Assembly: GCF_988243305.1 (NCBI RefSeq)
Contig: NZ_OZ547136.1
Length of the DNA: 64,000 nucleotides
Reading direction: 5' to 3' (one strand)
In this document: piece by piece, positions 140-21,311 of the stretch
Numbering within the stretch: position 1 is the first letter of the stretch
Layout of the letters: the number at the start of each line of letters is the position of its first letter
The notes under the pieces: generated by a model
Seen by the model: the letters and a program-made list of their open reading frames with translations, nothing else
Told to the model about the DNA's origin: nothing
Database searches by the model: none
Position numbers and translations under genes: made by a program

Positions 140-640
<501 letters not shown>

Positions 641-663
641 CTATTTCCCTGCCTCTCCTCCCC

Positions 664-697
664 GAACCGGACGTGCACCTTTCAGCGCATCCGGCTC
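664..697 (-). ncRNA. Group II intron domain V (catalytic hairpin)
   Basis: Minus strand GAGCCGGATGCGCTGAAAGGTGCACGTCCGGTTC: 34 nt, GAGC...GAAA...GGTTC pattern with a perfectly paired stem, about 50 nt before the inferred 3' splice site. Confidence 0.7.
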
Positions 698-702
698 TCC
701 AT

Positions 703-2226
703 TTAAATGCTGGCGAACGCCATTGCCACTTCTGTAAAGCGCGATGTATACGTGTTTCTGGTCTCCGTCCTCAGATAGGGATTACCTTCGGGTAGCCGCC
801 AGCGGAACAGCTTCTTGCCTTGCCCCACCAACCGGTACAGTATTTCGCCGCTGAGCTTGCCGTGATTGGTTTTACCAAATAAAACCCACGTTTTGCTCTG
901 ACCCGGTTTCGGTGATTTACACCACCACCTCATCAGGGAAGCGATACCTGTACGGTATTTGCGGGCCAGCCAGTGAGCCAGCTTCCAGAACACGACACGG
1001 TCGATATAACTGAAGACTTTGGCCTTAAAATCAACGAACTGATAGAACATGGCCCAGCCTTTCAGTTTTCGGTTGAGTTGTTCAGCCATATCGACTTTGC
1101 TTTCACTGTAGTTGCCTGATAACAGTGCTGTCAGCGATGCGGCGAAGTTTCTGGCTTTCTCCTGCGGGATCGTTGAGACCACTCGCATCTCGCCATAACG
1201 ACTGCGTTTGCGAATGATCCTGTGCCCCAGAAAGATAAAGCCGTCATTAACATGGGTGATTTTAGTCTTATCCATGTTCAGCCTGAGTTTCAGACTGCCT
1301 TCGAGCACACCCCGACACTCCTCCCTGATGGCTTCCGCCTGTGCTTTGGTGCCTTTGACGATGAGGACAAAATCATCGGCATAGCGGCAGTACGCCACCG
1401 CGGGTTTCCACTGCCAGTTTTCTCTGACCGCCGTACTTCGGCCCCGTTGGATACTGTTATTCCAGTACCACCGATCTTTTCTGGCTTTCCCGCTCAGGTA
1501 GCGCTCATGCAGGTATTGATCGAACTCATTCAGCATGATGTTCGATAATAGCGGCGATATAGCACCGCCCTGTGGCACACCTTCACTGGCCGCCCGAAAG
1601 AGACCGACATCGATATGTCCCGTCTTGATGGTTTTCCACAGCAGAGTCATGAAACGTGCGTCACTGATCCTGCGGCGTACAGCCTTCATCAGCAGTCGAT
1701 GATGTACGGTGTCGAAGTAACTGGACAGGTCGCCTTCAATCACCCAGCGTCCCCGGGTTTCACCACAGTCTGTGAGCTGTAATTTCACCGTGCGGATCGC
1801 GTGGTGGACACTGCGCTCAGGCCGGAAGCCATATGAGAGCGTATGAAAATCACTCTCCCATATCGGCTCCATCGCCATCAGCATGGCCCGCTGAACAATA
1901 CGATCCCGCAACGCGGGGATACCCAGTGGTCGCAGTTTGCCGTTGCTTTTAGGGATGTAAACCCGTCTGGCGGGCAAGGGCTGGTAGTGGCCTGAGAGTA
2001 ATTCATCCCTGAGGATTTGCAGCTCAACAGCCAGTCTGGCCTGTAGCATTGTTTTGTTCACGCCATCAACGCCGGGGGTATGGGCCCCCTTTGATGAAAG
2101 CGTGATCCGCGCCGCTTCAGCCAGCCATTCTGGTTGTGTTATCAGACGCAGCAGCCGTTGAATCCGTAGGGACGGATCGGTGGCTGCCCATGTGGCAAGC
2201 TTGCGTTGCATTTCGCTGATTATCAA
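703..2226 (-). CDS. Group II intron-encoded protein (reverse transcriptase/maturase)
   Basis: 507-aa ORF with RT motifs (PGVDGV near N-terminus, YADDFV active-site box) and a C-terminal maturase (X) region. No obvious HNH endonuclease motif. Start codon uncertain. Confidence 0.85.
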   Translation of the reverse strand: MIISEMQRKLATWAATDPSLRIQRLLRLITQPEWLAEAARITLSSKGAHTPGVDGVNKTMLQARLAVELQILRDELLSGHYQPLPARRVYIPKSNGKLRPLGIPALRDRIVQRAMLMAMEPIWESDFHTLSYGFRPERSVHHAIRTVKLQLTDCGETRGRWVIEGDLSSYFDTVHHRLLMKAVRRRISDARFMTLLWKTIKTGHIDVGLFRAASEGVPQGGAISPLLSNIMLNEFDQYLHERYLSGKARKDRWYWNNSIQRGRSTAVRENWQWKPAVAYCRYADDFVLIVKGTKAQAEAIREECRGVLEGSLKLRLNMDKTKITHVNDGFIFLGHRIIRKRSRYGEMRVVSTIPQEKARNFAASLTALLSGNYSESKVDMAEQLNRKLKGWAMFYQFVDFKAKVFSYIDRVVFWKLAHWLARKYRTGIASLMRWWCKSPKPGQSKTWVLFGKTNHGKLSGEILYRLVGQGKKLFRWRLPEGNPYLRTETRNTYTSRFTEVAMAFASI

Positions 2227-2882
2227 AGGTCTTCACCTCGTTAGGTCAGTTAATTCACGTCGCAAACACATTCAAACTGCTTCCCTTCGCCATGTAATGG
2301 GCTTTCCCCATCGCGGACTACTACGGAAGCTCCGCCAGCCAGCGCGTCATCGGAGCCATGCCCCCTTAACATCCGTCGCTGACCTTCCCCGGTTTACCTG
2401 CCTGGACTCAGGCATACTGAGGAGGCTGCCCGTCGCACTCTTTATCCTTGCTTGCCGCAAGTTGGCAGAAGTCAGCAACGCAAGTGTGATAGACGCTGCT
2501 GCCCCGGTGTTTCGCATACATGTCAAAACACCTTCGACCGGCAGTGCTTACGTATCACTGCCAGTTCCTCCTGCACGGCCTGTCAGATCACGTAGGCCGT
2601 GGTGACGTTTTCAACCCACAGAGGCGGATTAACGGGTTCATGTTCTTCAGCCTTTCAGTACTTAACCTTGAGGATCATCTCGGCTTAGTGATCTCGCCTC
2701 AATCCCCGTTGTCAGCGGGTTACATCACCCTGCGGGCATGCCGCAGGTCACTGCCGCTCAGGCTCTCCACCGTCACACCCGGTGGGATTGTTGGGTTTCT
2801 CATCGTGAGTTACCGGTTCAATATTCCAGACAGACTCGCGGTTCATTTAAGCATCCATGCCCGCCCTGAACTCCGGGCACAC

Positions 2883-3300
2883 CGTAAGTAAAATCAGCCA
2901 CCCACAGCTGGTCAGGACGTTCTGCCACGCACTGACGGTTTACGCGGTCACCTGTGGCAACGGTTTTCCGGCTGACGGTAGTGCGGACCTTTTTACCCCG
3001 GAGAACACCGGCAAGTCCCATAACCGCCATGAGGCGCGCCACTGTACATCTGGCCACCCTGATTCCTTCCCGTAACAACTGACGCCAGACTTTACGCACA
3101 CCGTACACCTGATGATTTTCATCGTATACGCGCTGTATCTCTCTCTTCAGCCAGTCATCGTGCTGCGCACGGGCACTGCGTTTATCCGGATGATGTCGCT
3201 GTTGCTGACAATGGTAATACGTTGACGGGGCAATATGCAGTTCGCTGCATACCGGTCCGACCCCGTACTGCTCACGCAGCTTATCCAGCAGTGGCATCAT
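2883..3300 (-). CDS. IS3-family transposase OrfB, N-terminal (5' exon) part
   Basis: ORF 2818..3300 reads ...[11 protein letters not shown] then runs into intron sequence. Overlaps orfA 3' end as expected for the -1 frameshift OrfAB arrangement. Confidence 0.75.
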
Positions 3301-3623
3301 TTTTTCCAGAGGCGGTCGAACTCCGCCTTCGCAAAATAAGCGGAAGCCTGGCGAAGGATATCGTTACTGCGGCGCAGTTCACGATTTTCACGTTCCAGCT
3401 CTTTCAGACGCTGACGTTCAGCGGTGGTGAGCCCTCCATCACCGCCCCCGGTATCCCGCTCATGCTGGCGAACCCAGACACGCAGAGTCTCCGGCGTACA
3501 GCCAATCTTTGGGGCAATGGAACAAATTGCCGCCCACTGTGAGTCATACTCATCCTGACTTTCCAGAACCATACGAATCGCCCGCTGACGGACTTCGGGG
3601 GAAAAACGAGTATTTTTAGTCAT
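3297..3623 (-). CDS. IS3-family transposase OrfA (HTH/leucine-zipper)
   Basis: 108-aa [22 protein letters not shown]...[36 protein letters not shown]; recalled as IS629/IS1203-type OrfA. Confidence 0.85.
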
Positions 3624-4023: not shown

Positions 4024-4056
4024 AAAGCACAGGGGCTGTTCACATAGCCCCTGTGC
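4024..4056 (-). terminator. Putative rho-independent terminator downstream of MFS gene
   Basis: 10-bp perfect stem CACAGGGGCT / AGCCCCTGTG (4026-4053) followed on the minus strand by a U-rich stretch CTTTATTTCTG. Confidence 0.4.
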
Positions 4057-4138
4057 AGAGCAATTGATAACTCTTACTTTGTTGAAAATTCATTGCAGCT
4101 AAGGTCAATGCCACAACAACAAAGCAAATAAAGATTAA

Positions 4139-5425
4139 TCAGGCTTTATTAGGTAAAGTATTTACCGAATGTGAAATCTTCACTGTCAGTGTAACAACTG
4201 CTGAACACAATAGCGTGGCTATCATAAAGATGAATGCACTGTTGTAACTTCCGTCGCTGCTTTGGATCAACCAGCCAATGACAGGGGCAGAAATAACCCC
4301 AGCCATCTGACCGCCAAAGTTAACGATACCTGATGCTCGCCCCATGATATTACTGGGAATAGTATCCATCAAAATGCCCCAGAACATTGCCATAGCGAAG
4401 AACATAAACAACGCTGAAACACATTGATAAACAACAGCCATATCCGCACTACTTACGCTGAAAGTCAAGTACAGGAACCCTGCAGCAATTACGGAAGTCA
4501 AGACATATAGTGTTTTACGTTGTGGTTTTAATTTATCTGAGCAATAGCCACCTAATAATGTCCCCCCAGCTCCAAATAGAAAGGGGATCGCAGCCATTAC
4601 GCCAGTTTTGGCCAATGAGAATTCACGAACAGTAATTAGATAACTTGGCAACCAAGTTGAAAAGCCCCAGAACGTAATATCAAACAAAAACCAAATGCAG
4701 GCCATCTGCCAAAGTACAGGCATCTTAAGTACATCTTTAAATGCAATATTACTTTTGCCTTGCCCCCCGTCCTGGTTATCTGATGCTAGCTCAACCAGAT
4801 CCTGCTGCGTTATTGCTGGATGATCTTTTGGATTATCACGGGTAAATAACCAGATACCCGCAGCAATAAATAAACCTGGTATACCCAATACGATGAAGAC
4901 CATGTGCCAGCCAAATGCACCGATAATGCTCGCCGCTACAACAACCGCCAGTGCTGGCCCTAAGGTGTTCACCGTAGACTGAATGGCTGTTGCGCGTCCT
5001 CGCTCTTTCGATGGAAAATAGGTCGAAATCATCTTCCATGAAGCTGACGGGAAACAACCTTCCCCTATACCAAAGAAGAAACGAACAATCAGCATTAACG
5101 GCAGAGCAAGTACCGCACCAGTAAGGCTGGTAAATATGGACCACCATGCAATACCAATGGCCATAATTTTCCTTGAGCCAAACTTATCGGCTAACATTCC
5201 ACCGGGAATCTGAAATGCAGCATAACCAATAAAAAAAGCACTAATAATTAAACCTTGTTGTGTTGTATCAAGATTTAAATCTTTGCCAATATAAGGTAAT
5301 GAAACACTCATGACCATTCTGTCGAGAAAAGAGAGTAACCATGCTAACCAAATTAAGGTCAAGACGGTATATCTTGCTTTCCAAAGTTTTGGTTTACCTA
5401 AAGGTAAAGATGTTTGTAGATTCAT
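4139..5425 (-). CDS. MFS transporter, anion:cation symporter (ACS) family-like
   Basis: 428-aa ORF with about 12 hydrophobic segments and MFS signature region ...GGMLADKFGSRK...; last gene of a four-gene minus-strand operon. Confidence 0.75.
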   Translation of the reverse strand: MNLQTSLPLGKPKLWKARYTVLTLIWLAWLLSFLDRMVMSVSLPYIGKDLNLDTTQQGLIISAFFIGYAAFQIPGGMLADKFGSRKIMAIGIAWWSIFTSLTGAVLALPLMLIVRFFFGIGEGCFPSASWKMISTYFPSKERGRATAIQSTVNTLGPALAVVVAASIIGAFGWHMVFIVLGIPGLFIAAGIWLFTRDNPKDHPAITQQDLVELASDNQDGGQGKSNIAFKDVLKMPVLWQMACIWFLFDITFWGFSTWLPSYLITVREFSLAKTGVMAAIPFLFGAGGTLLGGYCSDKLKPQRKTLYVLTSVIAAGFLYLTFSVSSADMAVVYQCVSALFMFFAMAMFWGILMDTIPSNIMGRASGIVNFGGQMAGVISAPVIGWLIQSSDGSYNSAFIFMIATLLCSAVVTLTVKISHSVNTLPNKA

Positions 5426-5502
5426 TGTAATGTCCTTTGAGTGTAACTATCTATCGCGACTCTTTTGGTCGCGATAGATCAATAAGTATTTAACGTAATT
5501 TA

Positions 5503-7098
5503 TTAATATTCTTTTCTGATAACTTTACCGCTACAGGCATAACTTTCCGTACCATTAATTAAGGCGATACGTCCATTGACCATTACAAGTTCAATTCCTT
5601 CTGGATACTGATTTGGCTCTACAAATGTTCCCTTATCTGCAATGGTTTTGGGATCGAACATTACAATATCAGCCGCATACCCAACTTTAAGTAATCCCCT
5701 GTTTTGCAGACCTAATACTTCCGCAGGTTTGCCGGTCATTTTACGAATTGCATCCTCCCAACTTAGGCATCCCTCTTCACGCACATATTTGCCCAGTACA
5801 CGAGGAAAGGCTCCAAACACTCGAGGATGGGGTTTTCCTGCCCCCATTAAACCATCAGTACAGACGTTCTGCTCTGCACGACAGAGGAATTTAATAACGT
5901 GTTCTTCTGTCCCATAGAAATCAACCATTCCTACAGCGTTTTCTTCTTCAAGAAGCAAATCGAAAGTGGCGTTATAGGGATCTTTACCGCGTAATTCGCC
6001 TAACTGGACAAGATTCAAACCTACGGCATCCTGATTTTTGGCAGTTTTCACACTGGTGACAAAAATTTGGTCTAGACCAGCAAAGTCAATAAAGTTATCC
6101 CATCCTGGAATACCTTGCTGAATGTCGTCGATCATTTTTGCACGCAGTTCTGGCGAAGCTAGTCGTTTCAGCAATTTATCCGTTCCTCCGGAATGGACCC
6201 ACGGAGGTAGGATTACACCAAGCATAGTGCTACCTGCAACATACGGATATTGATCGTAAGAGATACGTATTCCCTCTTTCTGCGCCTGTTCCAACATGCC
6301 AAGCATTTGGTCAATAAGCCCCCAGTTTTTCTTCCCACATACTTTCATATGTGATATATGGAGCCACACACCACTAGCTTTGGCTATATCGATTAATTCT
6401 TGGGTTGAATTGATAATATCATCAGCTTCACTGCGCTGATGCACCACAAAGAGCCCATCATATTTCGCTGTGACTTTACATAATTCAATCAACTCAGCAG
6501 TATCGCCAAAGGCGCAGGGCATATAGATAAGCCCAGAGGAAAGACCAAATGCCCCAGCTTTTAACTCCCGCTCAAGGATTTCACACATCTTTGCGACGTC
6601 TTCACGGGTAGAAGGGCGACCATCAAGTCCCATCGCTTCCATACGTACATTACCATGCGGAACCAGATACGCTAGATTTGTTGCTGGATGGTGAGATTCC
6701 AATAGGTTTAGGTATCCATCGGTATTTTTATATTTCCAGTCTATTTTATCGGTATCACCGTCAAGTCCAGCAATATTTTTACGCCAAGCTGGAATATATT
6801 TCTCAGGTAGTGGAGCCAATGCGACACCATCCTGTCCAAGTAACTCAGTAGTAATACCTTGACGTATTTTTGCCGATAGTTCAGGATTTATAATGGCCGA
6901 TAAATCAGAATGTGTGTGTGTATCAATAAAACCAGGGCAAATAATTTTTCCGCTTGCATCAATAAATTGTTCATTCTTACCAACATCAACGTGGCCGATG
7001 GAAATAATATATCCATCATCAACTACCACGTCAGTAATTATGCCCGGACTTCCTGTTCCATCAATAACATTTCCATTTTTAAAAATTGTTTTCATCAT
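5503..7098 (-). CDS. N-acyl-D-amino-acid deacylase (D-aminoacylase) family amidohydrolase
   Basis: ORF with KNGNVIDGTG...FIDTHTHSDL metal-binding amidohydrolase motifs. Start placed at the ATG (7098) preceded by GGAGA on the minus strand. Confidence 0.75.
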   Translation of the reverse strand: MMKTIFKNGNVIDGTGSPGIITDVVVDDGYIISIGHVDVGKNEQFIDASGKIICPGFIDTHTHSDLSAIINPELSAKIRQGITTELLGQDGVALAPLPEKYIPAWRKNIAGLDGDTDKIDWKYKNTDGYLNLLESHHPATNLAYLVPHGNVRMEAMGLDGRPSTREDVAKMCEILERELKAGAFGLSSGLIYMPCAFGDTAELIELCKVTAKYDGLFVVHQRSEADDIINSTQELIDIAKASGVWLHISHMKVCGKKNWGLIDQMLGMLEQAQKEGIRISYDQYPYVAGSTMLGVILPPWVHSGGTDKLLKRLASPELRAKMIDDIQQGIPGWDNFIDFAGLDQIFVTSVKTAKNQDAVGLNLVQLGELRGKDPYNATFDLLLEEENAVGMVDFYGTEEHVIKFLCRAEQNVCTDGLMGAGKPHPRVFGAFPRVLGKYVREEGCLSWEDAIRKMTGKPAEVLGLQNRGLLKVGYAADIVMFDPKTIADKGTFVEPNQYPEGIELVMVNGRIALINGTESYACSGKVIRKEY

Positions 7099-7161
7099 AA
7101 TTCTCCATGACGATGTCACATGGTGACACCGCCTGTAAGGGAAGAGGTTTTATCTTTAAAT

Positions 7162-8346
7162 TTAACGGAGATATAGTGTCTGAATAATGCTGTAATAACC
7201 ACTGGCCGAACCGGTTAATTGCTCGATCTCAATGTACTCATCAATGGTGTGCGCCAAGTTTTCCCGTGAAGGTCCAAACCCAATAGTTTTGATCCCCGCT
7301 TCACCAGCATAGTGGCTTCCGTTTGTACAAAATGAGTACTGCGTGATGGTCGGTGAAAACCCTGCCTTACGAATACCAACCAACGCAGCTTGTACAAATT
7401 CATCAGATTCGTCAAACACCCACCCAGGGAAGAAACGCTCACCTTCAATAGTTGCTCCTGTGTAGCAGGACTCTTGGCCTACTGCGTACGAGACCCGCCC
7501 TTTAAACTGCGGATCGAGGATTGCGAACTCTGCCAGTACACGTTCCAGAGGTGCAATAACGTTTTCTTTCGTTTCTCCGACAAGCAAACGGCGATCGTAA
7601 GTTGCACGGCAGTAATCCGGCACTACTGATGCTCCCGGATATGGCGATGATTTAATGTCTGTTAACTCTAAAATTCCGGGGCCAAGTATCGGATGCATTG
7701 GTGGTACAATGGTACGAATTTTGTCAATTAATTGTGCCATTTTGTAGACAGCATTTATTCCTGCCTGTGGATTGGCTGAGTGAGCTGGTTTCCCAAATGT
7801 TTCGACAACAATTTCAGCGCGTCCACGCTGACCGATTTTCAGGTTTAATTCGGAAGCTTCACCGATAATTACGTAATCAGGTTTAAAACGTTCACTGACC
7901 AAGCGTGCCGCAACACCTTCAAAACACTCTTCATGGACAATACAGGCTACGTAAATTTTGCCGGAAAAATTACGCTGGTAATCCTGACCAAAAAAACCAA
8001 CGGCGGAGATCATAGCCGCAACAGCTCCCTTCATGTCGGTTGCCCCCCGACCATAAATTTTGCCTTCGTCAATATCACCGCCATATGGATTCCGAGTCCA
8101 CATATCTTCGTTTACAGGCACAGTATCAATATGCCCATCCAAAACGAGAGTTTTCCCTGGCTGATTGCCAATAATACCACCAATAATATTGCCATACTTA
8201 TCGATATGAATATCGTCAAACTGGTAATACTGCATCATATCTTTTATGGCATTCACTACATCCCCTTCCTGACCGGAATAGCTTTTTTGTTGGATCAATG
8301 TCTGACAATTTTTAATAACTTCTTTATAACGACTTGCAGATAACAT
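7162..8346 (-). CDS. M20-family peptidase (ArgE/DapE/YgeY-like)
   Basis: 394-aa ORF with HIDTVPV and GRGATDMKG metal-ligand motifs typical of M20 deacylases. Confidence 0.75.
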   Translation of the reverse strand: MLSASRYKEVIKNCQTLIQQKSYSGQEGDVVNAIKDMMQYYQFDDIHIDKYGNIIGGIIGNQPGKTLVLDGHIDTVPVNEDMWTRNPYGGDIDEGKIYGRGATDMKGAVAAMISAVGFFGQDYQRNFSGKIYVACIVHEECFEGVAARLVSERFKPDYVIIGEASELNLKIGQRGRAEIVVETFGKPAHSANPQAGINAVYKMAQLIDKIRTIVPPMHPILGPGILELTDIKSSPYPGASVVPDYCRATYDRRLLVGETKENVIAPLERVLAEFAILDPQFKGRVSYAVGQESCYTGATIEGERFFPGWVFDESDEFVQAALVGIRKAGFSPTITQYSFCTNGSHYAGEAGIKTIGFGPSRENLAHTIDEYIEIEQLTGSASGYYSIIQTLYLR

Positions 8347-8378
8347 GGTGTTCCTCCGTTATTATTTAAATTAGAAAA

Positions 8379-9593
8379 TTACTGCTGAAGTACCGGATAC
8401 TGAGTCCCCCAGACAATATTGCGATATGATTCTGGGTCAGTGTCACCTTCAGTGCTGATTAGCAAAACACGGGAATGTGAATCCAGCCCCAACTGTTCAC
8501 GGGTTTGCCTAAATGTAGGGGAGGTCATCAGTAACGCCAGAAGCCCTGTGGTTACTGCCCCTGACTCTCCAGAAATAATCTGCGGATCTCCTGCTAACGG
8601 ATTTCCCAAAATACGCATACCCAACATTGCAACCTCGTCAGGACAGGAGGCAAAGGCTGTAGCATAGTCACGTAGCAGCTTCCAGCCGATACTGTTAGCC
8701 TCGCCACAAGCCAGTCCTGCCATGAGTGTCTGCAAATCCCCCCCTACTGCCACGGCATTTCCATCTTTCGCCAAGGCTGAGCGGTAGAGGCAATCGGCAA
8801 TTAATGCTTCTACAACGATTACTTTTGGACGATTATCCCCCCAAGCAGCAGTCACCATTCCCTGGACCATACCCGCAAACGAACCAACCCCCGCTTGGAC
8901 AAAGATATGTGTTGGTGCTACCTGATGGAGTTGAGCCATAGCCTCCAGCATCAACGTGCTATAGCCCTGCATGATCCATAGAGGAATTTTTTCATACCCT
9001 TCCCAAGCGGTGTCCTGAACAACAATCCAGCCGGATTTATCTGCCTGCTCTGCGGTCATTCGAACAGCATCGTCATAGTTCATATTGACAATTTCAGCCG
9101 TAGCACCTTCATTGCGAATTGATGACAGGCGTTGTTGCGAAGACCCCTTTGGCATATAAACTACTGCATTTTGCTTTAGCTGACGCGCCATCCACGCTAC
9201 TCCCCGCCCGTGGTTACCGTCAGTAGTAGTAGCAAAGGTAACTGTTTTCAGATAATGGCGCACATCGTCACTAGTCATGATATCAAACGACAATTCATCA
9301 ATCTCTTTCCCTAGTAATTCTGCGATATGACATGCCATGGCATAGGCGCCACCCAGCACTTTGAAGGCTTTTAGGCCAAAACGCTGAGACTCATCTTTGA
9401 GATAGATCTTTTTTATCCCTAATTTTTGTGAAAGCGCAGGTAATGTATAGAGCGGCGTTGGCTCGTAGCCTGGTATTGTCCGATGAAAATTCAATGCTTT
9501 TACCAGCTCATTGTGACTAAATGAAGCTAGTGGTGCGCTAGGTTGCTGAGTAAATTGTGTCTGGTTAATAAAAAAGGATATTTTTTCCTGCAT
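8379..9593 (-). CDS. Diaminopropionate ammonia-lyase-like PLP enzyme (DpaL/YgeX family)
   Basis: 404-aa ORF, fold-type II PLP enzyme with lysine in ...QRFGLKAFKVLGG...; first gene of the operon. Confidence 0.75.
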   Translation of the reverse strand: MQEKISFFINQTQFTQQPSAPLASFSHNELVKALNFHRTIPGYEPTPLYTLPALSQKLGIKKIYLKDESQRFGLKAFKVLGGAYAMACHIAELLGKEIDELSFDIMTSDDVRHYLKTVTFATTTDGNHGRGVAWMARQLKQNAVVYMPKGSSQQRLSSIRNEGATAEIVNMNYDDAVRMTAEQADKSGWIVVQDTAWEGYEKIPLWIMQGYSTLMLEAMAQLHQVAPTHIFVQAGVGSFAGMVQGMVTAAWGDNRPKVIVVEALIADCLYRSALAKDGNAVAVGGDLQTLMAGLACGEANSIGWKLLRDYATAFASCPDEVAMLGMRILGNPLAGDPQIISGESGAVTTGLLALLMTSPTFRQTREQLGLDSHSRVLLISTEGDTDPESYRNIVWGTQYPVLQQ

Positions 9594-9675
9594 GATAAGA
9601 CCTCATTGTACTGGTATCTCGCACCCTGTAATCAGAGAAATCCAAAGATGCCTTCTGTATGACTATTCACTAAAA

Positions 9676-9691
9676 AGCAAAATGCGTACCA
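9676..9691 (-). promoter_or_regulatory. Candidate sigma-54 (-24/-12) promoter for the catabolic operon
   Basis: Minus-strand TGGTACGCATTTTGCT: GG and GC elements separated by 10 nt, near-consensus to TGGCACG-N4-TTGC. About 80 bp upstream of the operon ATG and adjacent to a divergent sigma-54 activator gene. Confidence 0.5.
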
Positions 9692-9973
9692 GTTTTTTAT
9701 TAGAGTTAGTAAAAAGTAACATATATTTCTTTAACCTTTTCATTTCAATGAATTAGGAAGTCATTGCGTCATAATGAATCCCCCTCCCTAGTATTGGCCT
9801 TATTTCAATGCCTGATAAATTCTCATTAATGAGAATTTATGTGATCAATCAAAAGAAAATAATAAAAACACAAATAAAACATATAGATATATTGATCTTT
9901 TTCAAGTAAATTTTTCCTAATATCATATAATTTCTCATTTTTCTGAGAATTTTATACTGACTGGAGGAGAACC

Positions 9974-11719
9974 ATGATTTCAGTACTGAGAAACATTCAG
10001 GATGATATATGTAATTATGCCGATGCTATCTCTGGCATAATCGGAACTGATGTAGAAATCATTGATGAGTCATTAATGCGCATAGCTGGTACAGGTCAAT
10101 ACAGGTATATGCTCAATGAGAGTGTGGTAAAAAATGGTTACATTTATCGGCATGTATTACAGGTACGAAAAACAGTTCTGATCACAAATCCAGGAGAACA
10201 TCCTCTCTGCCAGTTATGTGAGAAAAACCATTATTGCTCGGAAATGTTAGATTTGAACACACCCATTTTTCTCAATGAGCGTGTCATCGGAGTCATTGGA
10301 ATTATTTGCTCTACCCAGACACAGCGTAAAATCTTGTTGAACCAGATTGATAAATTTATTACCTTTATTGAGCAAATTGCTGCGATGATTTCCAGTAAAG
10401 TCTTCGAATGTCTGGAACGCCTGCGGGCCCAAGAAACTCTCAGTACATTTCGTCGATTGATTGATGCGATGGATCGCGGTGTTGTAGCTATTGATGGTAA
10501 GGGCCGAATCTGGCACGCTAACAACTCAGCCGATCGCATACTTAACCGCAAGGTTCAAGGTATTACGTTAACGATTGAAACAACCGGGGACATTCTATAT
10601 GGAGATGAAGAAGCATGGTTGACGCTGGAAGGAGAAAGATACCATGTGTTGTGCAAACAAATTTCTCTTTCCTCATTAGATAATGATCGACTCACCATGA
10701 TTATCTTTCGTGATGCACATGACTATCTGAGCACAATAGTTTATCCTTACGAATCTGATGCTCAAGTGCGATTAATTGGACATTCACCACTAATGGAACA
10801 ACTCAGAAGCACCGTTAGAAAAATCGCCAGTAGTTGTGCCAGCGTACTGATCACCGGAGAAAGTGGCTCAGGTAAAGAAGTTGTGGCATTTGCTATTCAT
10901 CAGAATAGTCCACGTAAATCCGCTCCTTTTGTAACAATCAACTGCGCTGCAATCCCAGAGCAACTGCTGGAAAGCGAGCTATTTGGCTACGTGAAGGGGG
11001 CATTTAGTGGGGCGAATCCTAAAGGACGTATAGGTAAATTTGAACTGGCCAATGGGGGAAGTCTCTTTCTCGATGAGATCGGAGATATGCCGCTCCATCT
11101 GCAGGCCAAGCTGCTTAGAGTTCTTCAGGAAAAAAACATTACCCGCGTTGGCTCTAATAATATTATCAATATTGATGTGCGCATTATTGCTGCGACCAAC
11201 AAAAACATCCGTGAAATGGTTGAGAGTAATCAGTTTCGAGAAGACCTTTATTATCGCCTGAATGTGGTTCCTCTAGTAATTCCTTCTTTACGGGAACGAC
11301 GGACTGATATTGCCCTCCTTGCACAATATTTTGCTGATGAGTTCTCTGAAAGCTATCAACGTCCAGTGAAAAAACTCCCCGATGATATAATTAACCATCT
11401 TTACGCTTGGCACTGGCCTGGTAACATCCGTGAATTACGTAATGTCATTGAGTATATTTTTGTTATGCGTGGTGAAACTACTGATATCAACGTCAGCCAT
11501 CTTCCCCCTTATCTGCTCAATGTAGTGGACAACAGCAAAACTGTTATGACAATCAACACCAAGCAGCTACTGAGTCAGGGAAGACAAGCGGAAAGGAGGG
11601 CAATTGAAACTGCATTACAACGATATAGCCCAAGTGGAGAGGGGAAAAAACAAGCTGCCGCTGAATTAGGAATAAGTATTGCTACACTATACCGAAAGAT
11701 AAAACAATATGGTTTATAG
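9974..11719 (+). CDS. Sigma-54-dependent transcriptional activator (bEBP, YgeV-like) with N-terminal sensor domain
   Basis: 581-aa ORF with Walker [15 protein letters not shown] loop, ELFGY motif and C-terminal HTH (...[17 protein letters not shown]). Divergent from the operon. Confidence 0.85.
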
Positions 11720-11889: not shown

Positions 11890-12895
11890 AACACTGGTGA
11901 TGGCGGGGTATTGTTTCATGAAATGCTAAATAACTGCTCCTAATGCCGCTACACTTTAGCCAGCCCATGTTTTCCACCGGGAAATGGGCTGACGGTATCC
12001 ATAAAGTGACGAACCTTTTTCAACAACTGCCACATTGAACGGCACTGGTGATTTCGGGTTACTGTCTCATGAAGCGCCTGCCATAACCGTTCGATATGAT
12101 TGACCCACGGCGAGTAAACCGGCTGATAAATTATCCTGAACTTCGAGTTTGCTTTCAGCCAGCGCAACGTTTCACGGCTTTTGTGGATGATGTAGTTATC
12201 GACAATGAGTGTAATCGTTTTTGCCCGCCGGTATGTCGCTTTCAGGTGTTTTAACAGACTGATAAATAAGGACGAACCTTTACTGTTCCCACCAACGTAG
12301 CTGACTTTTCCCGTACCGCTGTGCAGCGCACCGGCAAGATAGTACTTTTCATTCTGACCCGGCGTGACAACGCGCTTTTGCTGCCCACGTAGCTGCCAGC
12401 CTGCACCAATTTTGGGATTGAGGTGAATATCCACTTCATCTTCGTAAAACACGGGGTTTTCCGCACAGCATTTCGCCAGTGCTTCATGAATAGCGACCAT
12501 TTTTTCTTCTTTGTGTGGGTCACGGATACGCAGTGTCGGCGCAGTTCTCCGCCATACCAGTCCGGCAGCAGGCAACCAGCGGCATATACACTCGGCAGGT
12601 AATGATTTGTCCATTAACACCCGACTGCGTGAACCAGTTAATCCAGGGTCCAACATAGGAACGGACTCAGCAGAGCATTCTAGCAACATCGCTGACACGG
12701 TGGAGCCATTGCAGTATCACCATAGCAGTCAGTCTGCGGGCATAATTTTTATCGTGTGTTTTGTGGATAGCTTTCTGTATCAGGTGTCGTTCGTTACAGG
12801 GAATTGGCTCTATGATTGGCATAGTTCAGTCCGGTTGGTGATTTGTTTTAATTTGTCGATTGAACAAACGCACAATCCGGGCTGAGTTCCCTCAA
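11890..12895 (-). mobile_element. IS630-family element, apparently defective (approximate ends)
   Basis: Transposase reading frame recognisable in two frames: N-terminus MPIIEPIPCNERHLIQKAIHKTHDKNYARRLTAM... from ATG at 12820-12822, ending at an in-frame TGA; C-terminal DDE part in ORF 11949..12698. Element ends not mapped. Confidence 0.6.
11949..12822 (-). pseudogene. IS630-family (Tc1/mariner-like) transposase, disrupted by premature stop/frameshift
   Basis: C-terminal 249-aa ORF ...DPHKEEKMVAIHEALAKCCAENPVFYEDEVDIHLNPKIGAGWQLRGQQKRVVTPGQNEKYYLAGALHSGTGK...DNYIIHKSRET... The N-terminal segment is in a different frame and stops at TGA. Confidence 0.6.
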
Positions 12896-15010
12896 AGTGA
12901 TCTACTATTCCGTGCAGCTATTTAGATCAAGGCTAAGGCAGGAATTTTATGTAATTAATGCTAGAGGTAAACGTTGTGGGTAAATGGTTTGCATGGTTAA
13001 TATTTAACCATAAGGAATAAGAGGTATTGCAGAATTAATTCCGTATAGTTATTCTTCTTGTAAGAAGATTTTTGGGTGCTAGTGATAAATTACAGAGCCT
13101 ATAGAAATGTAAAGTAACAAATCACAGAATAAGGATACAATAGCATAATTTATTGTCACACAAAGCCCCAAGACATTCTGTAATAAAAGGAATTTCCATA
13201 AGAAGAACCATTGACAATAATATGAGCACCACCATTGTAGAGATATTTATTTATGACTGAAAAGGAACTCCAAAATTTGGCTATTTCTATATATGAAAGG
13301 CAACGAGAGAAGTTATCACGTGAGACAGAGTGTAATAAATCTACCTCAATAAGATTTGCCCTAGAAGATTTCCTAAAGAATGCTCCGAAACGTATGCGAT
13401 CTGCGCGTGCTCGCCCCCCAGGGTAATAAATGTCGCAAACTCTGATAATATTTTTATGAAAACAAGCATATTTACAAACGTAAACTAATGATTCTAATTT
13501 GACAGAATATAAACTATAAGTATTAATAAATACCATACGGAGCAGAAAAAAATATCAAAATGAGTTAATTTGATTAGAAAGATTTATCCCATTTATAAAG
13601 ATAATTGTAGAAAGATTCATTGACTCTAAGAGCAAATAAGGAGAGGGCATACAGGATATAACTAGTACTCATAATAAAAATCCCTCTACCGATATAAGTA
13701 AAATTTATTTCCCAGACGAGTTTTTAATAATACATATCAGAAACAGTGCTAAACGATGGGCCGTAATCCTCATGAATAGTAACTCATGGTTATTTTACAC
13801 TGGATTATCGGTGGGGTAATTCTGATAATAGAAACACCTGAAAAACTAAAATCATTAATTTTAAAATACAACCATATACTCATCAAACTCTCGATACACC
13901 ATTCTTCTTTTAAAGTAAAGAAAAACTCTATCTGTGCTTATGTTCCACAACATAAATAGAATAAAAAAATTAAGGATTTATATATTAAGAGTGAATTTAC
14001 ATTTTAGGCTAACTTTAGTACATATTAATTATTGTTTCTTATTAATTTTAAACTTCAAAAGCTATATCAAGGGTTGCCACTTCTATCTGCGACTAACAGC
14101 ATATCTATCAGCAACAATTGATTAATTCCAGCACCTCATGTCGGCGCGATCTGGTGGAAAAGCCATTCCACCAAAACAACCCCAAGCGCTGGCACGTTGG
14201 GGAGATCTGCACTGTGAACCAGCTGGCAATGAGCCGCTTTATTATCGAGTTCGGTGACCGCCTAGACGGTCACTTCTGAGAAAAGGCATTTACACAGAAT
14301 CCTAAACCGGCTCGCAGGTTTCCCCCACTCCCCATCCGCACTCAAGTTCAGACGGCGAATAACATAGCTAATCAGCTCATTACGGAATGACTACCATCCA
14401 GATAGTGTGCCGCAGTTTAAGGTTCGGTCAACCGCTTTTTAACCATTCAGCATTGCCTACAATACAAATAAGGAGCCTTATATTATGCCTAATCTCTGTA
14501 TGCTGCATAGTGCCGGGTGCCTCCCGGTGAGTCCAGCCTGGTGTCTCTGAACCCGCATAGAAAGGATTAGGGTAATATAAAAACAAACACCTGTTACTGA
14601 TATGCTCCGCCGCTTAGGGGAGTTCACCATACATTTTTATTTTTAACAAAAAAGCTCAAGGCGACAATAATAAATACTATAAAATGTGAGCAGCATAACA
14701 TTTTAACTTAGTAACTAATATTCACTAAACTTACCAATTCACATACGCCCCACGGCATGGCAAAGCTTCGTTACGTTAGTTTATACCACATAGGTATTAT
14801 TACCAAACTAAATAATCACTTTACGCTCTGTATTTTGCCTGTTTTCACTGCGGTTTTTCTCAATACCCCGTCCAGAATAACGTTAACACATTATTAACTT
14901 AAATCCGGAGAACATGATGATGACTGGATTCAAACACACTTAACATGAATATCCTCTATCCATTAAAATAACTGTCATTGAGCCGGTTGAAAAAACGAGA
15001 TGAACTATAA

Positions 15011-15184: not shown

Positions 15185-15800
15185 ACAAGCAATTTTCACT
15201 GGCAGAAAAAATATCTTGATTACCGGATCAGCACAGGGCATTGGCTTTTTACTGGCAACCGGTCTGGGTAAATATGGCGCACAAATAATTATTAATAATA
15301 TTACTGCCGAACGCGCATAACTTGCTGTAGAAAAACTCCACCAGGTGGGTATTCAGGCCGTTGCCGCACCTTTTAATGTTACTCATAAACATGAAATTGA
15401 TGCCGCCGTTGAACATATCGAAAAGGACATCGGCCCCATTGATGTGCTGGTGAATAACGCCGGTATCCAGCGCCGTCATCCTTTTACTGAGTTCCCTGAA
15501 CAAGAGTGGAATGATGTGATCGCAGTAAACCAGACCGCCGTGTTCCTGGTGTCGCAAGCGGTAACCCGTCACATGGTTGAACGCAAGGCAGGTAAAGTTA
15601 TTAATATTTGCTCGATGCAAAGCGAACTGGGACGTGGCACCATCACCCCTTATGCCGCATCGAAAGGGGCGGTAAAAATGCTCACCCGCGGCATGTGCGT
15701 CGAGCTGGCGTGCCACAATATTCAGGTCAACGGTATTGCGCCGGGCTATTTCAAAACAGAAATGACTAAAGCACTGGTTGAGGACGAAGCCTTCACCGCC
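15181..15800 (+). pseudogene. idnO: 5-keto-D-gluconate 5-reductase (SDR) gene, inactivated
   Basis: ATG at 15181 reads MNKQFSLAEK then hits a stop after 12 codons. SDR frame resumes in another frame (ITGSAQGIGFLL...) and contains an in-frame TAA at 15318-15320. The SDR catalytic region is intact in ORF 15345..15863 but the 3' end diverges. Confidence 0.6.
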
Positions 15801-15805
15801 TGGTT

Positions 15806-16003
15806 GTGCAAGAACAAATTTCCATTGCGGGTTTTTATGGGCTGGAGATTGGCAGGCAAATGATCCCAAGCCTCGCCAGCGTAATTACTCCCCGTTTTGA
15901 TATTGGTCGGATGGCCGCCCAAATGTTGCTGAGCAAAATTAAGAATAACGATCACAACACTGTTGACCTCGGGTATCAGATTTATCACTGTAACACGCTT
16001 TAG
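15806..16003 (+). pseudogene. idnR: 3' remnant of LacI-family regulator gene, fused downstream of idnO remnant
   Basis: ORF ...[55 protein letters not shown] resembles a LacI/GntR-type C-terminus. The transporter gene expected between idnO and idnR is missing. Confidence 0.4.
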
Positions 16004-16080
16004 GTTATTTTCTCTTCATTACACGTATTCTCTTTGCCGGACGTTGCCTATACTCCAAGCAGGAAACTGGAGGAAATCTC

Positions 16081-16745
16081 ATGAGCGCCTCCCTGTTAAT
16101 TGCCCGCATGCCAATACGGTGGGGTGGGATATCTTTGGCGAGAAAGGCCATCCGGTGCGGGCAACGGTTTCAGACCTAGGGCCACTGTTGCTGGCGTGGC
16201 TGTTGAATCTCAACGATGTGCAGTCTGGCGTGCTGGATATCATTTTCCGCATTGCTGATGATCAGGGATTGTTGCTGCTCGACTTTAAAGATCTGCGGGC
16301 AATTACCCAGTACATCGGCGATAACGCCAAATCCTTCCAGAATCAGTACGGTAATATCAGTAGCGCATCGGTTGGTGCCATCCCGCGCGGATTACTGTCG
16401 CTGGAGCAACAAGGCGCAGAGCATTTCTTTGGCGAGCCGATGCTGGATATCAAAGACTGGATGCGCACCGATACCAACGGTAAAGGCGTTATTAATATCC
16501 TCAGCGCCGAGAAGCTTTATCAGATGCCGAAACTGTATGCAGCCAGTCTGCTGTGGATGCTCTCGGAGCTGTATGAACAATTGCCGGAAGCGGGCGATCT
16601 GGAGAAACCAAAACTGGTGTTTTTCTTCGACGAAGCGCATCTGCTGTTTAACGATGCAGCACTGGTACTGCTGGATAAGATTGAGCAGGTGATAAGGCTT
16701 ATTCGCTCAAAAGGCGTTGTCGTCAGAACGGCTTCCCCTGTGTGA
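16081..16745 (+). pseudogene. yjgR: DUF853/HerA-like ATPase gene with internal deletion and 3' truncation
   Basis: ATG at 16081 encodes MSASLLIAR then shifts frame. ORF 15963..16745 carries the central region (...[24 protein letters not shown]...[17 protein letters not shown]...) but ends prematurely with unrelated residues. Confidence 0.55.
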
Positions 16746-17321: not shown

Positions 17322-18503
17322 TCAGGTCTGCTCAGAAAGTGAATCAATGTAGTCAGCGTACCATTGCATCATTTCACGGCGACCATCGAGATACTGTGCG
17401 TGGTTATAGGTACCGCGCATGATGTTTTTATCAACATGGGCAAGCTGGAGTTCAATCCAGGCAGAGCTGAAATCATGGTCATGGAGAATGGTACTGAAAG
17501 TATGCCGAAAACCATGAGCTGTAGTGAATGTATGCCAGCCAACTTGTTGAAGAAACTCATTGATGCAACCACGGCTACGAGGTTGATTACCCCTGTATAC
17601 ACCAGGAATAACCAGATCTGAGTTACGGGGATTTGTGATTATTTTTATATCTTTCAATAACATTTGAGCCTGATGAGAAAGAGGAACAACATGCGGCCTC
17701 CGCATTTTCATTCTCTCTTTTGGGATTACCCAGAGGGCATTGGTAAAATCAATTTCATCCCAAGTAGCCAGGCGTAATTCTCCCGTTCGAACAGCAGTCA
17801 GAACCAGTATCCGCGTTACCAGAGACATAAAATTTCCTGAAACTTTCATTTGGTACATGAAAGCTCCTAACTGTTCTTCAGATAGCATCCGTCTCTGCTG
17901 TTTTTCAGGATGCAGAACAACACTGCTGAGAGTCGATGCTGGGTTAATAGTGGCGCGCCCCGTCGCAATGGCATAATCAAATATTTGAGAACAGAGCTGA
18001 CGAGTCTTACGTAACGCTTCAAGTTTGCCATTCCTTTCAATAACCCTCAGTGCATTCAATATTTCCAAGGGGCGAATATCAGCCACAGGACGCTTCCCTA
18101 GCGTGGGATTAATATGATTCTCGAATCTTGCACGCTGGTCCGCTAAATAACCCGCAGTCCAACGACAAGCCATATGTGTGAACAACTCTTCTGCAAGAGT
18201 ACAAAATGTGCATGCAATACTTTCTCTTAGTGCATGTTTACTCGCCTGTTTTTCATATGAAGGATCTTTTCCTTCAGCCAGGAGTTTACGTGCGTCATCC
18301 CGTTTCTGACGCGCCAGAGCCAGTGATATGCCTGGATAGACACCAATCACCAATTTCTTTTCTTTACCCGCAAATCGATACTTCAGATTCCAGTAACGAG
18401 CGCCAGATTTCTTGATAAGAAGGTAAAGTCCTTGACCATCAGAAAGTTTGTAATCCTTGTCAGCGGGTTTGGCCGACTCAATTTGTCGAACAGTAAGTGG
18501 CAT
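17322..18503 (-). CDS. Tyrosine recombinase, P4-type phage/island integrase
   Basis: 393-aa ORF MPLTVRQIESAKPADKDYKLSDGQGLYLLIKKSGARYWNLKYRF... with C-terminal catalytic region ...HGFRHTFSTIL...LAHVDKNIMRGTYNHAQY (R..HxxR..Y). No tRNA gene adjacent. Confidence 0.85.
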   Translation of the reverse strand: MPLTVRQIESAKPADKDYKLSDGQGLYLLIKKSGARYWNLKYRFAGKEKKLVIGVYPGISLALARQKRDDARKLLAEGKDPSYEKQASKHALRESIACTFCTLAEELFTHMACRWTAGYLADQRARFENHINPTLGKRPVADIRPLEILNALRVIERNGKLEALRKTRQLCSQIFDYAIATGRATINPASTLSSVVLHPEKQQRRMLSEEQLGAFMYQMKVSGNFMSLVTRILVLTAVRTGELRLATWDEIDFTNALWVIPKERMKMRRPHVVPLSHQAQMLLKDIKIITNPRNSDLVIPGVYRGNQPRSRGCINEFLQQVGWHTFTTAHGFRHTFSTILHDHDFSSAWIELQLAHVDKNIMRGTYNHAQYLDGRREMMQWYADYIDSLSEQT

Positions 18504-18678
18504 GATGTTAACTCCGAAAAGTAGCCCCCAGAGTAGCCCCCAAAATCATCTTGATGCTCATGGAAGATGGTTTACATCCAGAGTAAAAGAATTTCTGATA
18601 ATACCTTATTTTAACGTGTGTTAAAGGGGATGAAGAGAGTTCTGTTGAAATCAGTCGAAATAAATAGGGCTTAATAAA

Positions 18679-19493
18679 TCCTCCCCGCCGGGGAGTGCTG
18701 GCTGGAACGCCTGCGACTGGCAAAAACGTTGGGCTTCGATTTTGTCGAGATGTCGGTAGATGAAACTGACGAGCGCCTGTCGCGCCTCGACTGGAGCCGC
18801 GAGCAGCGTCTGGCGCTGGTGAATGCGATTGTTGAAACCGGCGTGCGTGTGCCGTCCATGTGCCTTTCTGCCCATCGTCGTTTTCCGTTGGGCAGCGAAG
18901 ATGACGCGGTGCGGGCGCAGGGGCTGGAGATTATGCATAAAGCCATCCAGTTCGCCCAGGACGTTGGCATTCGCGTGATCCAGCTGGCGGGCTATGACGT
19001 TTACTATCAGGAAGTCAATAACGAAACGCGTCGTCGTTTCCGTGACGGCCTGAAAGAGAGCGTTGAGATGGCAAGCCGCGCGCAGGTGACGCTGGCGATG
19101 GAGATCATGGATTATCCGTTGATGAACTCCATCAGCAAGGCGCTGGGTTACGCGCACTATCTCAACAACCCGTGGTTCCAGCTCTACCCGGATATCGGCA
19201 ACCTGTCGGCGTGGGACAACGATGTGCAGATGGAGTTGCAGGCCGGAATCGGGCATATCGTCGCGGTACATGTGAAAGACACCAAACCTGGCGTCTTCAA
19301 AAACGTGCCGTTTGGCGAAGGTGTAGTGGATTTCGAACGTTGTTTCGAAACGCTCAAACAGAGTGGCTATTGCGGGCCGTACCTGATTGAGATGTGGAGC
19401 GAAACGGCGGAAGACCCGGCGGCAGAAGTGGCGAAAGCGCGTGATTGGGTGAAAGCGCGCATGGCGAAAGCGGGCATGGTGGAGGCGGCATAA
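18679..19493 (+). pseudogene. ulaE: L-ribulose-5-phosphate 3-epimerase gene, 5'-truncated
   Basis: Reading frame begins mid-protein (...[32 protein letters not shown]...). The first ~13 codons and upstream ula genes are absent; homology starts abruptly about 180 bp from the integrase start. No ATG. Confidence 0.65.
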
Positions 19494-20179: not shown

Positions 20180-20307
20180 AACACGCGCTGCGGAAATTTC
20201 CTTCTTCGGGAGATAACTGGTCTAATTCCGCAGCCGTTTTTCAAAAAAAGCCCCCTGCGAAGGGGGCAAAGCAAACTATGGCAATGTTTCGTTGGTTATA
20301 CCTGGTG

Positions 20308-20583: not shown

Positions 20584-20891
20584 AGATACCTCCTCGACGG
20601 CTGACTTTGTGTGCTCTCCTCTGTGATGATCTTCTGATTTAATTTTAATCAATGATAAAGAAGTTGATGGTGACCATTTCTGATGCAGTTGTTCAAAAAA
20701 ACACCATGATGAAGTGTGATGAACTCCAAATCAGCGGTTTAGAGGTTAATTGCGAAAGGGGAGATTTATTTCGGCTCTGCCCTTGAGTTTAGCGGGGCAT
20801 ACAAGTACTATAACGCGTCATTTTTCAGCCGACCTTTAACACGTTCCTTGCCTCCCCGGGATTCGGCTGACCCAGACAGGAGGCTGAATAA

Positions 20892-21305
<414 letters not shown>

Positions 21306-21311
21306 TTTCTG

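Follow-up and report, generated by a model that had tools for sequence, protein, structure and literature searches.

We identified, in a 64,000-nucleotide (nt) stretch of Escherichia coli DNA (hereafter the window; contig NZ_OZ547136.1 of assembly GCF_988243305.1, whose positions in this stretch serve as coordinates throughout), a five-gene cassette that we read as a self-contained lower branch of the anaerobic reductive urate pathway. The branch would be of the hydrolytic type found in Clostridioides difficile, detached from the upper pathway and provided with its own importer and regulator, and we put the probability of this reading, which is drawn from sequence comparison, at about 0.6. Four co-directional genes, separated by gaps of 77, 66 and 32 nt in order of position, encode a major facilitator superfamily (MFS) transporter, an amidohydrolase, an M20 metallo-hydrolase and a diaminopropionate ammonia-lyase (DpaL), and a 380-nt intergenic region divides them from the divergent gene of a sigma-54 activator (Table 1). 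This arrangement is the one given by the original prediction, a short note made from the same DNA, and all five open reading frames (ORFs) were recovered at its positions. Family assignments were checked against NCBIfam, Pfam and PDB. The enzymology of such a branch was already known as of 2025; its detached, mobile and transporter-equipped form, together with the three importer variants described below, appears to be undescribed, and the literature that we searched makes no mention of stand-alone modules, of their transporters or of Citrobacter in such a role.

The anaerobic reductive, or 2,8-dioxopurine, pathway of urate breakdown was solved by two studies in 2025: urate is reduced, both rings are opened by SsnA and HyuA to yield 2,3-diureidopropionate, the ureido groups are removed, and YgeX converts diaminopropionate to pyruvate (PMC12507026; bioRxiv 10.1101/2025.04.24.650524). 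One ureido group is removed in E. coli by the carbamoyltransferase YgeW and in C. difficile by UacY, a D-aminoacylase homologue of the PF07969 family. In vitro, C. difficile UacY turns the HyuA product of ureidomethylhydantoin into albizziin, which E. coli YgeY and YgeX together take to pyruvate (PMC12507026). The original prediction had held that the substrate of the locus could not be deduced from sequence. That view no longer stands, since these papers assign the enzyme set to the series from 2,3-diureidopropionate through ureido-diaminopropionate and diaminopropionate to pyruvate, and the same three genes occur in the same order in the full urate clusters of many anaerobes.

The closest functional reference for the cassette is the urate cluster of C. 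difficile, which was reached by a homologue search seeded with a Clostridium copy of the amidohydrolase. This locus holds genes for RidA, a sigma-54 activator, a PALP-family lyase, an M20 enzyme, the amidohydrolase, an SsnA-like enzyme, a xanthine permease, a DHO_dh protein of the UacX type, HyuA-like and XdhD-like enzymes, and RpoN. We took its amidohydrolase to be UacY because the composition of the locus matches the published cluster and this is the only D-aminoacylase-like PF07969 gene in it. The lower branch there consists of the same four families in the same order as in the window (activator, DpaL, M20, amidohydrolase), with a -24/-12 promoter element upstream of dpaL and a GQDG motif in the amidohydrolase in both. 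DpaL of the window is 54% identical to the C. difficile PALP protein, and the two activators share 37% identity. On these comparisons, the enzyme trio is very probably orthologous to the C. difficile set. By contrast with the C. difficile cluster, the window lacks upper-pathway genes, a xanthine or urate permease and RidA, and has an MFS anion symporter instead, in a facultative anaerobe and on a mobile island; tblastn found no homologue of SsnA, HyuA, XdhD, UacX or YgfK anywhere in the 64 kb. As a separate observation, the C. difficile cluster ends with rpoN itself (positions 20173-21519 of that locus), which follows the XdhD-like gene directly and is read from the same strand.

The amidohydrolase is the most informative member of the trio. 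It aligns with C. difficile UacY along its full length (59% identity and 78% similarity over 527 residues, one gap), and with the copies that Clostridium tanneri and Sporomusa carbonis carry in their full urate clusters it shares 64-68% identity. Among solved structures, its best relatives are the D-aminoacylase of Alcaligenes faecalis DA1 (1M7J, E 9e-79) and the N-acyl-D-glutamate deacylase of Bordetella (3GIP/3GIQ; E 3e-74 for 3GIP), with which it shares the Amidohydro_3 fold, an HxH motif, two further histidines and the catalytic aspartate (H60-x-H62, H219, H249 and D414, all conserved). Its Lys251, Tyr283 and Arg425 occupy conserved positions and align with residues of the classical enzymes that bind the carboxylate of the D-amino acid. 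It differs from the classical enzymes in that Asp89 replaces the metal ligand Cys96 of 1M7J, so that GQDG stands for GNCG, a change that is invariant in 15 family members and also present in C. difficile UacY, and in a conserved insertion of about 40 residues between residues 293 and 358. Furthermore, it fails the NCBIfam model NF006560 (218.4 bits against a cut-off of 340), and C. difficile UacY has no NCBIfam match at E <= 1e-60. We therefore assign the enzyme to the UacY family, as a D-aminoacylase-like member of Amidohydro_3 and not a generic N-acyl-D-amino-acid deacylase, in place of the label D-aminoacylase that it had been given. We expect it to act on an N-carbamoyl (ureido) compound in place of an N-acyl one, and specifically to hydrolyse a single ureido group of 2,3-diureidopropionate. 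A HyuA-like identity was tried and rejected, as there is no BLAST match to K-12 HyuA at E <= 1e-5.

These features bear on a rival explanation, in which the operon serves to break down, in a generic way, D-serine, free diaminopropionate or some N-acyl-D-amino acid, with a broad D-aminoacylase and an M20 peptidase or deacylase feeding DpaL and no link to urate. The PDB relatives just named and the database names of the protein ('N-acyl-D-amino-acid deacylase family') point that way, as do the breadth of DpaL enzymes, which also accept D-serine and both diaminopropionate isomers (YgeX literature), and the lack of upper-pathway genes in the window. However, the score below cut-off, the missing cysteine ligand and the insertion all separate the enzyme from that group, and its family shares 57-68% identity with copies that lie within full urate clusters, with which stand-alone copies intermix in a tree (see below). 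Where two ureido or amide hydrolases stand beside a diaminopropionate lyase, a diaminopropionate substituted on both nitrogens also suits the set better than an amino acid with a single N-acyl group. We consider generic catabolism unlikely. The N-acyl-D-amino acid of the original prediction was nonetheless close in chemistry, because the substrate proposed here is an N-carbamoyl-D-amino acid; as a description it was too generic.

Assignment of the lyase is firm at the equivalog level. DpaL scores 589.5 bits against TIGR03528 (equivalog cut-off 532.25) and 559.8 against NF006058 (cut-off 276), matches the E. coli DAPAL structure 4D9G at E 5e-126, and is 52% identical to K-12 YgeX. In the alignments to 4D9G and K-12 YgeX, the residues matching Lys77 and Asp120 are kept within AFK and TTDGNHGRG motifs; from the structural work on 4D9G we take these to be the residue that binds pyridoxal 5'-phosphate (PLP) and the acid/base residue of E. 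coli YgeX, respectively. By these scores the protein is a PLP-dependent lyase of the DpaL/YgeX family, predicted to convert diaminopropionate to pyruvate and two NH3. The expectation that the operon ends in pyruvate and ammonia is still the best reading of the locus.

The M20 enzyme, in turn, resembles the C. difficile protein far more than the K-12 one. It passes NF009555 (476.3 bits, cut-off 321) and fails TIGR03526 (264.2 bits, cut-off 321.5), and the C. difficile M20 enzyme behaves in the same way (538 and 263 bits), whereas K-12 YgeY scores 714 and 722 bits. Identity is 63% to the C. difficile protein and 31% to K-12 YgeY, in alignment with which the metal-ligand motifs are visible. By these scores and identities, the M20 enzymes fall into two distant types, of which the first accompanies YgeW and the second UacY. 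Both occur in one cluster of Clostridium cavendishii, where YgeW, a K-12-type YgeY and YqeA stand together with a UacY-type amidohydrolase that has an M20 enzyme of its own. In the window, the M20 enzyme is predicted to strip the remaining ureido group and so to yield 2,3-diaminopropionate. That two such distant types both carry the name YgeY matters for annotation and for metagenomic surveys that apply identity cut-offs to marker genes.

The locus had been described as a variation on the ygeV-ygeX-ygeY-hyuA theme of K-12. Of this comparison, ygeV (38% identity) and ygeX hold; hyuA has no counterpart by BLAST, and the supposed ygeY is the C. difficile-type M20 gene. The K-12 locus ygeV/ygeW-ygeX-ygeY-hyuA-yqeA has in common with the cassette the regulator family, including a Cys-x2-Cys-x5-Cys motif, the lyase, the divergent layout and the final conversion of diaminopropionate to pyruvate. 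Unlike the cassette, K-12 removes one ureido group by phosphorolysis, through the carbamoyltransferase YgeW and the carbamate kinase YqeA, with a yield of ATP; the cassette would use an irreversible hydrolase of an unrelated family, has neither HyuA nor YqeA, and carries a dedicated importer.

Taken together, these assignments lead to the following proposal. The MFS anion symporter would import a ureido-substituted diaminopropionate, most likely (R)-2,3-diureidopropionate, a mono-ureido form such as albizziin being possible. The UacY-like amidohydrolase would hydrolyse one ureido group to NH3 and CO2, the M20 enzyme would take off the second to leave 2,3-diaminopropionate, and DpaL would cleave this to pyruvate and two NH3. 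Transcription would start from a sigma-54 promoter upstream of dpaL, fired by the divergent YgeV-type activator bound at an upstream dyad, presumably when its sensor detects the substrate or a related metabolite. Each molecule would yield one pyruvate, four NH3 and two CO2, and the compound would be a rich nitrogen source on account of the four NH3. The enzymes presumably keep the specificities of C. difficile UacY and of E. coli YgeY and YgeX; as to which substrate is imported and what the cassette does for the cell, our confidence only modestly exceeds even odds. In chemistry, the proposal recalls allantoate (diureidoacetate) and hydantoinase systems, in which amidohydrolase-superfamily and M20 enzymes remove ureido groups stepwise with release of NH3 and CO2, and we take the proposed substrate to be the one-carbon-longer analogue of allantoate. 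It differs from those systems in its enzyme subfamilies and in ending, through a PLP lyase, in pyruvate rather than in glyoxylate or an amino acid.

A comparative survey, in which one genome per species was scanned, gave 80 loci with the amidohydrolase family, mostly in anaerobes (Clostridia, Lachnospiraceae, Negativicutes, Fusobacteria, Desulfovibrionia, Synergistetes and others). In the 61 loci with enough sequence, an M20 gene of the window type lay within 3.5 kb upstream of the amidohydrolase gene on the same strand in 52, and a DpaL gene in 46. SsnA-, XdhD-, UacX- or YgfK-like genes were found within 10 kb in 23 of the 80 loci. By this count, DpaL, M20 and amidohydrolase form a conserved core that stands either in full urate clusters or alone with its own importer, and linkage to the upper pathway characterises the full cluster and not the UacY-family enzyme as such. 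In a neighbour-joining tree, the amidohydrolases of full clusters and of stand-alone modules are intermixed; the tree carries no support values, and the intermixing is only suggestive for that reason. RidA often follows the module, which fits the release of an enamine or imine by a PLP lyase.

The stand-alone loci that could be classified each carry an importer, of the MFS type in 7, of the sodium/solute symporter (SSS) type in 19 and of the NCS1 allantoin/hydantoin-permease type in 5. MFS-type hosts named in the survey are four Citrobacter species, Budvicia, Proteus penneri, Desulfovibrio sp. MES5 and Pelosinus propionicus, and a separate look-up added a locus in Propionivibrio; in the 19 SSS loci the symporter gene is inserted between the M20 and amidohydrolase genes. 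A HyuA-like hydantoinase accompanies the NCS1 permease in every one of its loci (5/5) and is absent from the SSS-only and MFS loci (0/26). This is the pattern expected if the modules import successive intermediates of the pathway, the neutral hydantoin in one case and its acidic ring-opened product in the other.

The transporter of the window scores 254.5 bits against TIGR00893, the D-galactonate-transporter subfamily, which is below the cut-off of 395, and its best solved relatives in PDB are DgoT (E 2.5e-32) and sialin. It can be described as an anion:cation-symporter (ACS)-like MFS protein of an uncurated subfamily, given the score below cut-off and the relation to DgoT. Homologues with 54-83% identity adjoin the same trio in Citrobacter, Budvicia, Proteus penneri, Propionivibrio, Desulfovibrio sp. 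MES5 and Pelosinus propionicus, and the protein is predicted to import the ureido-acid substrate. The number of MFS representatives at 55% identity or more is only about three.

The same survey also offers material for a different source of the substrate. The chemistry could be as proposed and the compound come from elsewhere, such as plant albizziin, N-oxalyl-diaminopropionate or fragments of diaminopropionate-containing antibiotics or siderophores; or, in Citrobacter and its like, the module could work inside the cell as the lower branch of a urate pathway that is split, with the transporter in another role. Upper-pathway genes are absent within 10 kb of many stand-alone modules, and Desulforamulus aeronauticus combines a full urate cluster with a separate stand-alone module with NCS1 permease and hydantoinase, which suggests distinct roles for the two. 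Additionally, no protein of Citrobacter, Proteus, Providencia or Budvicia is among the best 120 relatives of K-12 YgeY (down to 82% identity), where Salmonella and more distant genera do appear, so that the cassette may be the only DpaL/M20 set of these four genera; for Citrobacter, this hints indirectly that a YgeY of the K-12 type is lacking. Citrobacter youngae is listed among the strains tested by Kasahara et al., without a stated result. Against such a source, no positive evidence favours any alternative substrate, and the constant pairing of NCS1 permease and hydantoinase follows the order of the urate pathway intermediates. We see a small but real chance that this explanation holds; if the substrate does differ, the cassette would define a new catabolic route for diaminopropionate conjugates.

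The activator matches the sigma-54 interaction domain PF00158 (Sigma54_activat, AAA+; E 1.3e-72), AAA_lid_14 and the Fis-type HTH_8 (7e-07), with a weak PAS match, and contains a Walker A motif (residues 295-302), a GAFSGA loop (342-347, with T to S in the GAFTGA-type loop) and a Walker B motif (D367-E368). Its identity to K-12 YgeV extends over the full length, including the sensor domain. The N-terminal 270 residues, which resemble a GAF sensor, align across nine homologues from Proteobacteria and Firmicutes, and in all nine the motif C79-x2-C82-x5-C88 (window 10208-10237) is invariant. It is kept in E. coli YgeV and in homologues from C. difficile, Clostridium tanneri, Acidaminococcus, Propionivibrio and Enterobacterales, and hints at a metal or cluster site in the activator.

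The predicted sigma-54 element TGGTACGCATTTTGCT spans the stretch from 98 to 82 nt before the dpaL ATG. Just two sites in the window match TGGCAC-N5-TTGCW with one mismatch, and no other than this falls between dpaL and the activator gene; its position is conserved in Citrobacter, Budvicia and Proteus. A -24/-12 match is present in the 400 nt before dpaL in 22 of 28 species loci with an adjacent activator gene, whereas random windows from the same loci have one in 6.4% of cases; in C. difficile the match is TGGCATAGTAATTGCT, with its first base 84 nt before the start codon of dpaL. A perfect palindrome centred about 137 nt upstream of the -24 element is a candidate binding site for the activator, and its dyad is conserved in Enterobacterales with both arms changing together (TTCTCA/TGAGAA here, TTATCA/TGATAA in Budvicia). 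The second, related dyad, beside the start of the activator gene, is less conserved in the same alignment and could tentatively be a further binding or autoregulatory site. From these elements, expression of the operon would be expected to depend on rpoN and the activator. Sigma-70 matches were at chance level (19 against 20.7 expected), so that we claim no sigma-70 promoter for the operon; a weak match, TTTTCA-16-TATCAT at 9899-9926 (+), lies upstream of the activator gene. Inspection by eye of the intergenic region for the CRP site TGTGA-N6-TCACA gave nothing convincing.

Two observations were made in the K-12 ygeV-ygeW intergenic region (positions 7788-8262 of that locus). It contains TGGCACACTTATTGTT about 105 nt upstream of ygeW, which matches at -24 and has GT rather than GC at -12, and it contains ATCACATTTCTATATCAATATGAGAAT, which resembles the upstream block ATCACA...TTCTCA...TGAGAAT of the window. 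YgeV-family activators may share a TGAGAAT half-site.

Several points weigh against reading the cassette as a urate branch. The C. difficile protein is taken to be UacY (UniProt Q181U6) by cluster context and family, not by an accession match, and the M20 enzyme assayed in the papers is E. coli YgeY, only 31-34% identical to the C. difficile-type M20. Identities of 59-63% are no guarantee of the same substrate, and the roles of enzymes and transporter in the Enterobacterales clade are assigned by homology. The two studies disagree on which ureido group is removed first, and with it on the order of steps and the intermediate (PMC12507026; bioRxiv 10.1101/2025.04.24.650524). Reports of extracellular intermediates concern the supernatants of pathway mutants and of cell suspensions. 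The nearest MFS protein outside the known loci (62% identity) adjoins RidA, with no trio within 7 kb, and a 40%-identical MFS protein is paired, in an unrelated cluster, with a D-aminoacylase of a different subfamily (36% identity) that keeps the cysteine ligand. The promoter departs from consensus, with TGGTAC for TGGCAC. Finally, E. coli already has YgeW, YgeY and YgeX, beside which a second set would be of uncertain benefit. As for the cluster with the 36%- and 40%-identical pair (positions 5368-8230 of its locus), it also holds a formiminotransferase and flavoproteins, and D-aminoacylase-like enzymes with ACS-type MFS proteins may be a recurring pair in other, uncharacterised pathways.

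Gout and hyperuricaemia give relevance to the anaerobic urate pathway, which was not elucidated until 2025. From this locus, the last three steps of the pathway seem to circulate as a mobile module, independent and equipped with an importer, and such independence raises the idea that intermediates are exchanged between gut species. In its widest form, the idea is that ureidomethylhydantoin, 2,3-diureidopropionate and ureido-diaminopropionates are shared in gut and sediment communities and harvested by widespread scavenger cassettes, each made of the trio, a YgeV-type switch and an importer matched to the point of entry; we offer this tentatively and hold it to be rather doubtful. If it is true, NCS1 permease with hydantoinase would serve for the hydantoin, and SSS or MFS transporters for the acids. 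The MFS cassette of E. coli and Citrobacter would then be a mobile nitrogen-scavenging trait, by which enterobacteria would consume what leaks from uricolytic anaerobes. Within E. coli the cassette is rare and accessory, and it offers a ready hydrolytic alternative to YgeW for the engineering of uricolytic probiotics.

Table 1. Features of the cassette and its flanks, in window positions
Feature	Position	Strand	Details
MFS transporter	4139-5425	-	428 aa
UacY-family amidohydrolase	5503-7095	-	530 aa from ATG 7095; start in the ORF list, GTG 7119
M20 metallo-hydrolase	7162-8346	-	394 aa
DpaL	8379-9593	-	404 aa
Sigma-54 activator (YgeV type)	9974-11719	+	581 aa
Predicted strong intrinsic terminator	4027-4056	-	11-bp stem with 8 G-C pairs, then TTTATTTCTG; 83 nt past the MFS stop codon
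Predicted sigma-54 -24/-12 promoter	9676-9691	-	TGGTACGCATTTTGCT
Candidate upstream activator site	9815-9840		26-nt perfect palindrome ATAAATTCTCATT|AATGAGAATTTAT
Second related dyad (tentative)	9929-9952		AATTTCTCA-N6-TGAGAATTT
Group II intron, left flank	703-2226 (reverse transcriptase/maturase); 613-699 (RNA domain)	-	TIGR04416, 337 bits; Rfam intron domain; directly beside the IS3 fragments
IS3 ORF fragments, left flank	2818-3623	-	ALIL frameshift pseudoknot retained at 3226-3342, 121 bits
IS630-family transposase fragment, right flank	11949-12698	-	context, outside the operon
Tyrosine integrase	17322-18503		393 aa; about 5.6 kb further right

The five ORFs are taken to be real genes and not chance ORFs because their exact proteins are recorded in many E. 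coli contigs and the cassette is kept in other genera. For each of four of the five, the exact protein sequence is recorded in about 56-73 E. coli contigs, and that of DpaL occurs in 132 blocks of the sequence collection index. For the amidohydrolase, the translation from ATG 7095 has a 100%-identical database match and is the same in all six E. coli loci compared. This ATG is likely the true start rather than GTG 7119, since GGAGA stands 6 nt upstream of it, other assemblies call proteins of 530-531 residues, and the N-terminus aligns residue for residue with homologues.

On the chromosomes of the Citrobacter freundii complex, the five-gene unit is regular, with 85-94% amino acid identity; it is also present in Budvicia aquatica, Proteus penneri and Propionivibrio, and Providencia has amidohydrolase matches at 82% identity. 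DNA homology between E. coli and Citrobacter is confined to 4133-11717, at 79% nucleotide identity, which indicates that the five genes moved as a unit from a donor that is not among the sampled Citrobacter species. The original prediction had placed the genes in an AT-rich block between insertion sequence (IS) elements, and the composition bears this out, with a GC content of 42.6% in the cassette block (29.7% in the intergenic region) against 52.2% in the core part of the window, and with IS3 and IS630 fragments on its flanks. With mobile-element debris on both sides, the cassette is, by composition and context, horizontally acquired. A search of 5,426 complete RefSeq E. coli genomes and of the PLSDB plasmids gave neither near nor distant DNA matches to it, the sole matches (65-68%) being to native dpaL and sigma-54 regulators. 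A plasmid or common E. coli origin was rejected on the lack of near matches in these two collections and of any distant match for 4100-8000. Between the E. coli loci compared, the cassette is 99.8-99.9% identical and always in the same island context; on this record it is a real but rare accessory element of E. coli.

Such rarity would also be expected if the cassette were silent cargo, brought into E. coli on a decaying island, unexpressed and without phenotype. Its absence from the complete genomes, the IS fragments, group II intron and gene remnants around it, and the overlap in function with native ygeW-ygeX-ygeY are all in keeping with that account. We find it very improbable, as no damage is seen in any of the five ORFs or in the promoter, dyad and terminator, independent E. 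coli assemblies agree almost to the base, and E. coli has the rpoN that this promoter type needs.

The island itself looks degraded around an intact cassette. The stretch 15345-16745 holds gene remnants, with fragments of Pfam adh_short and HerA_C in the gene tables of identical E. coli loci, and the ORFs scanned at 15249-15869 and 15963-16745 have no NCBIfam match. In one E. coli assembly, the alignment across the 613-3623 region is broken by about 160 nt and no reverse transcriptase gene is called. On the right, the ulaE ORF adjoining the integrase (window 17322-19493) matches only profile positions 29-278 of 279 and looks 5'-truncated by the island. A tRNA integration site was considered and ruled out, as ARAGORN finds no tRNA in the window and the integrase abuts the apparently truncated ulaE instead. 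The integrase-ulaE junction occurs in many other E. coli genomes with different island cargo, the matches beginning at window 17229.

At the gathering threshold, Rfam has no family inside the operon; its only matches, all outside, are ALIL, the group II intron and the small RNA STnc100. The last is a full-length match at 14464-14662 (-), with 103 bits against a gathering score of 47, in an AT-rich stretch of the island between the IS630 fragment and the gene remnants. The remainder of the window consists of ordinary E. coli chromosome, in which 28000-44000 is 100% identical to the tamAB-cpdB region of several strains; in E. coli genomes that match this part, a transposase of IS621, from the IS110 family, is annotated among tamA, tamB, cpdB and paeA.

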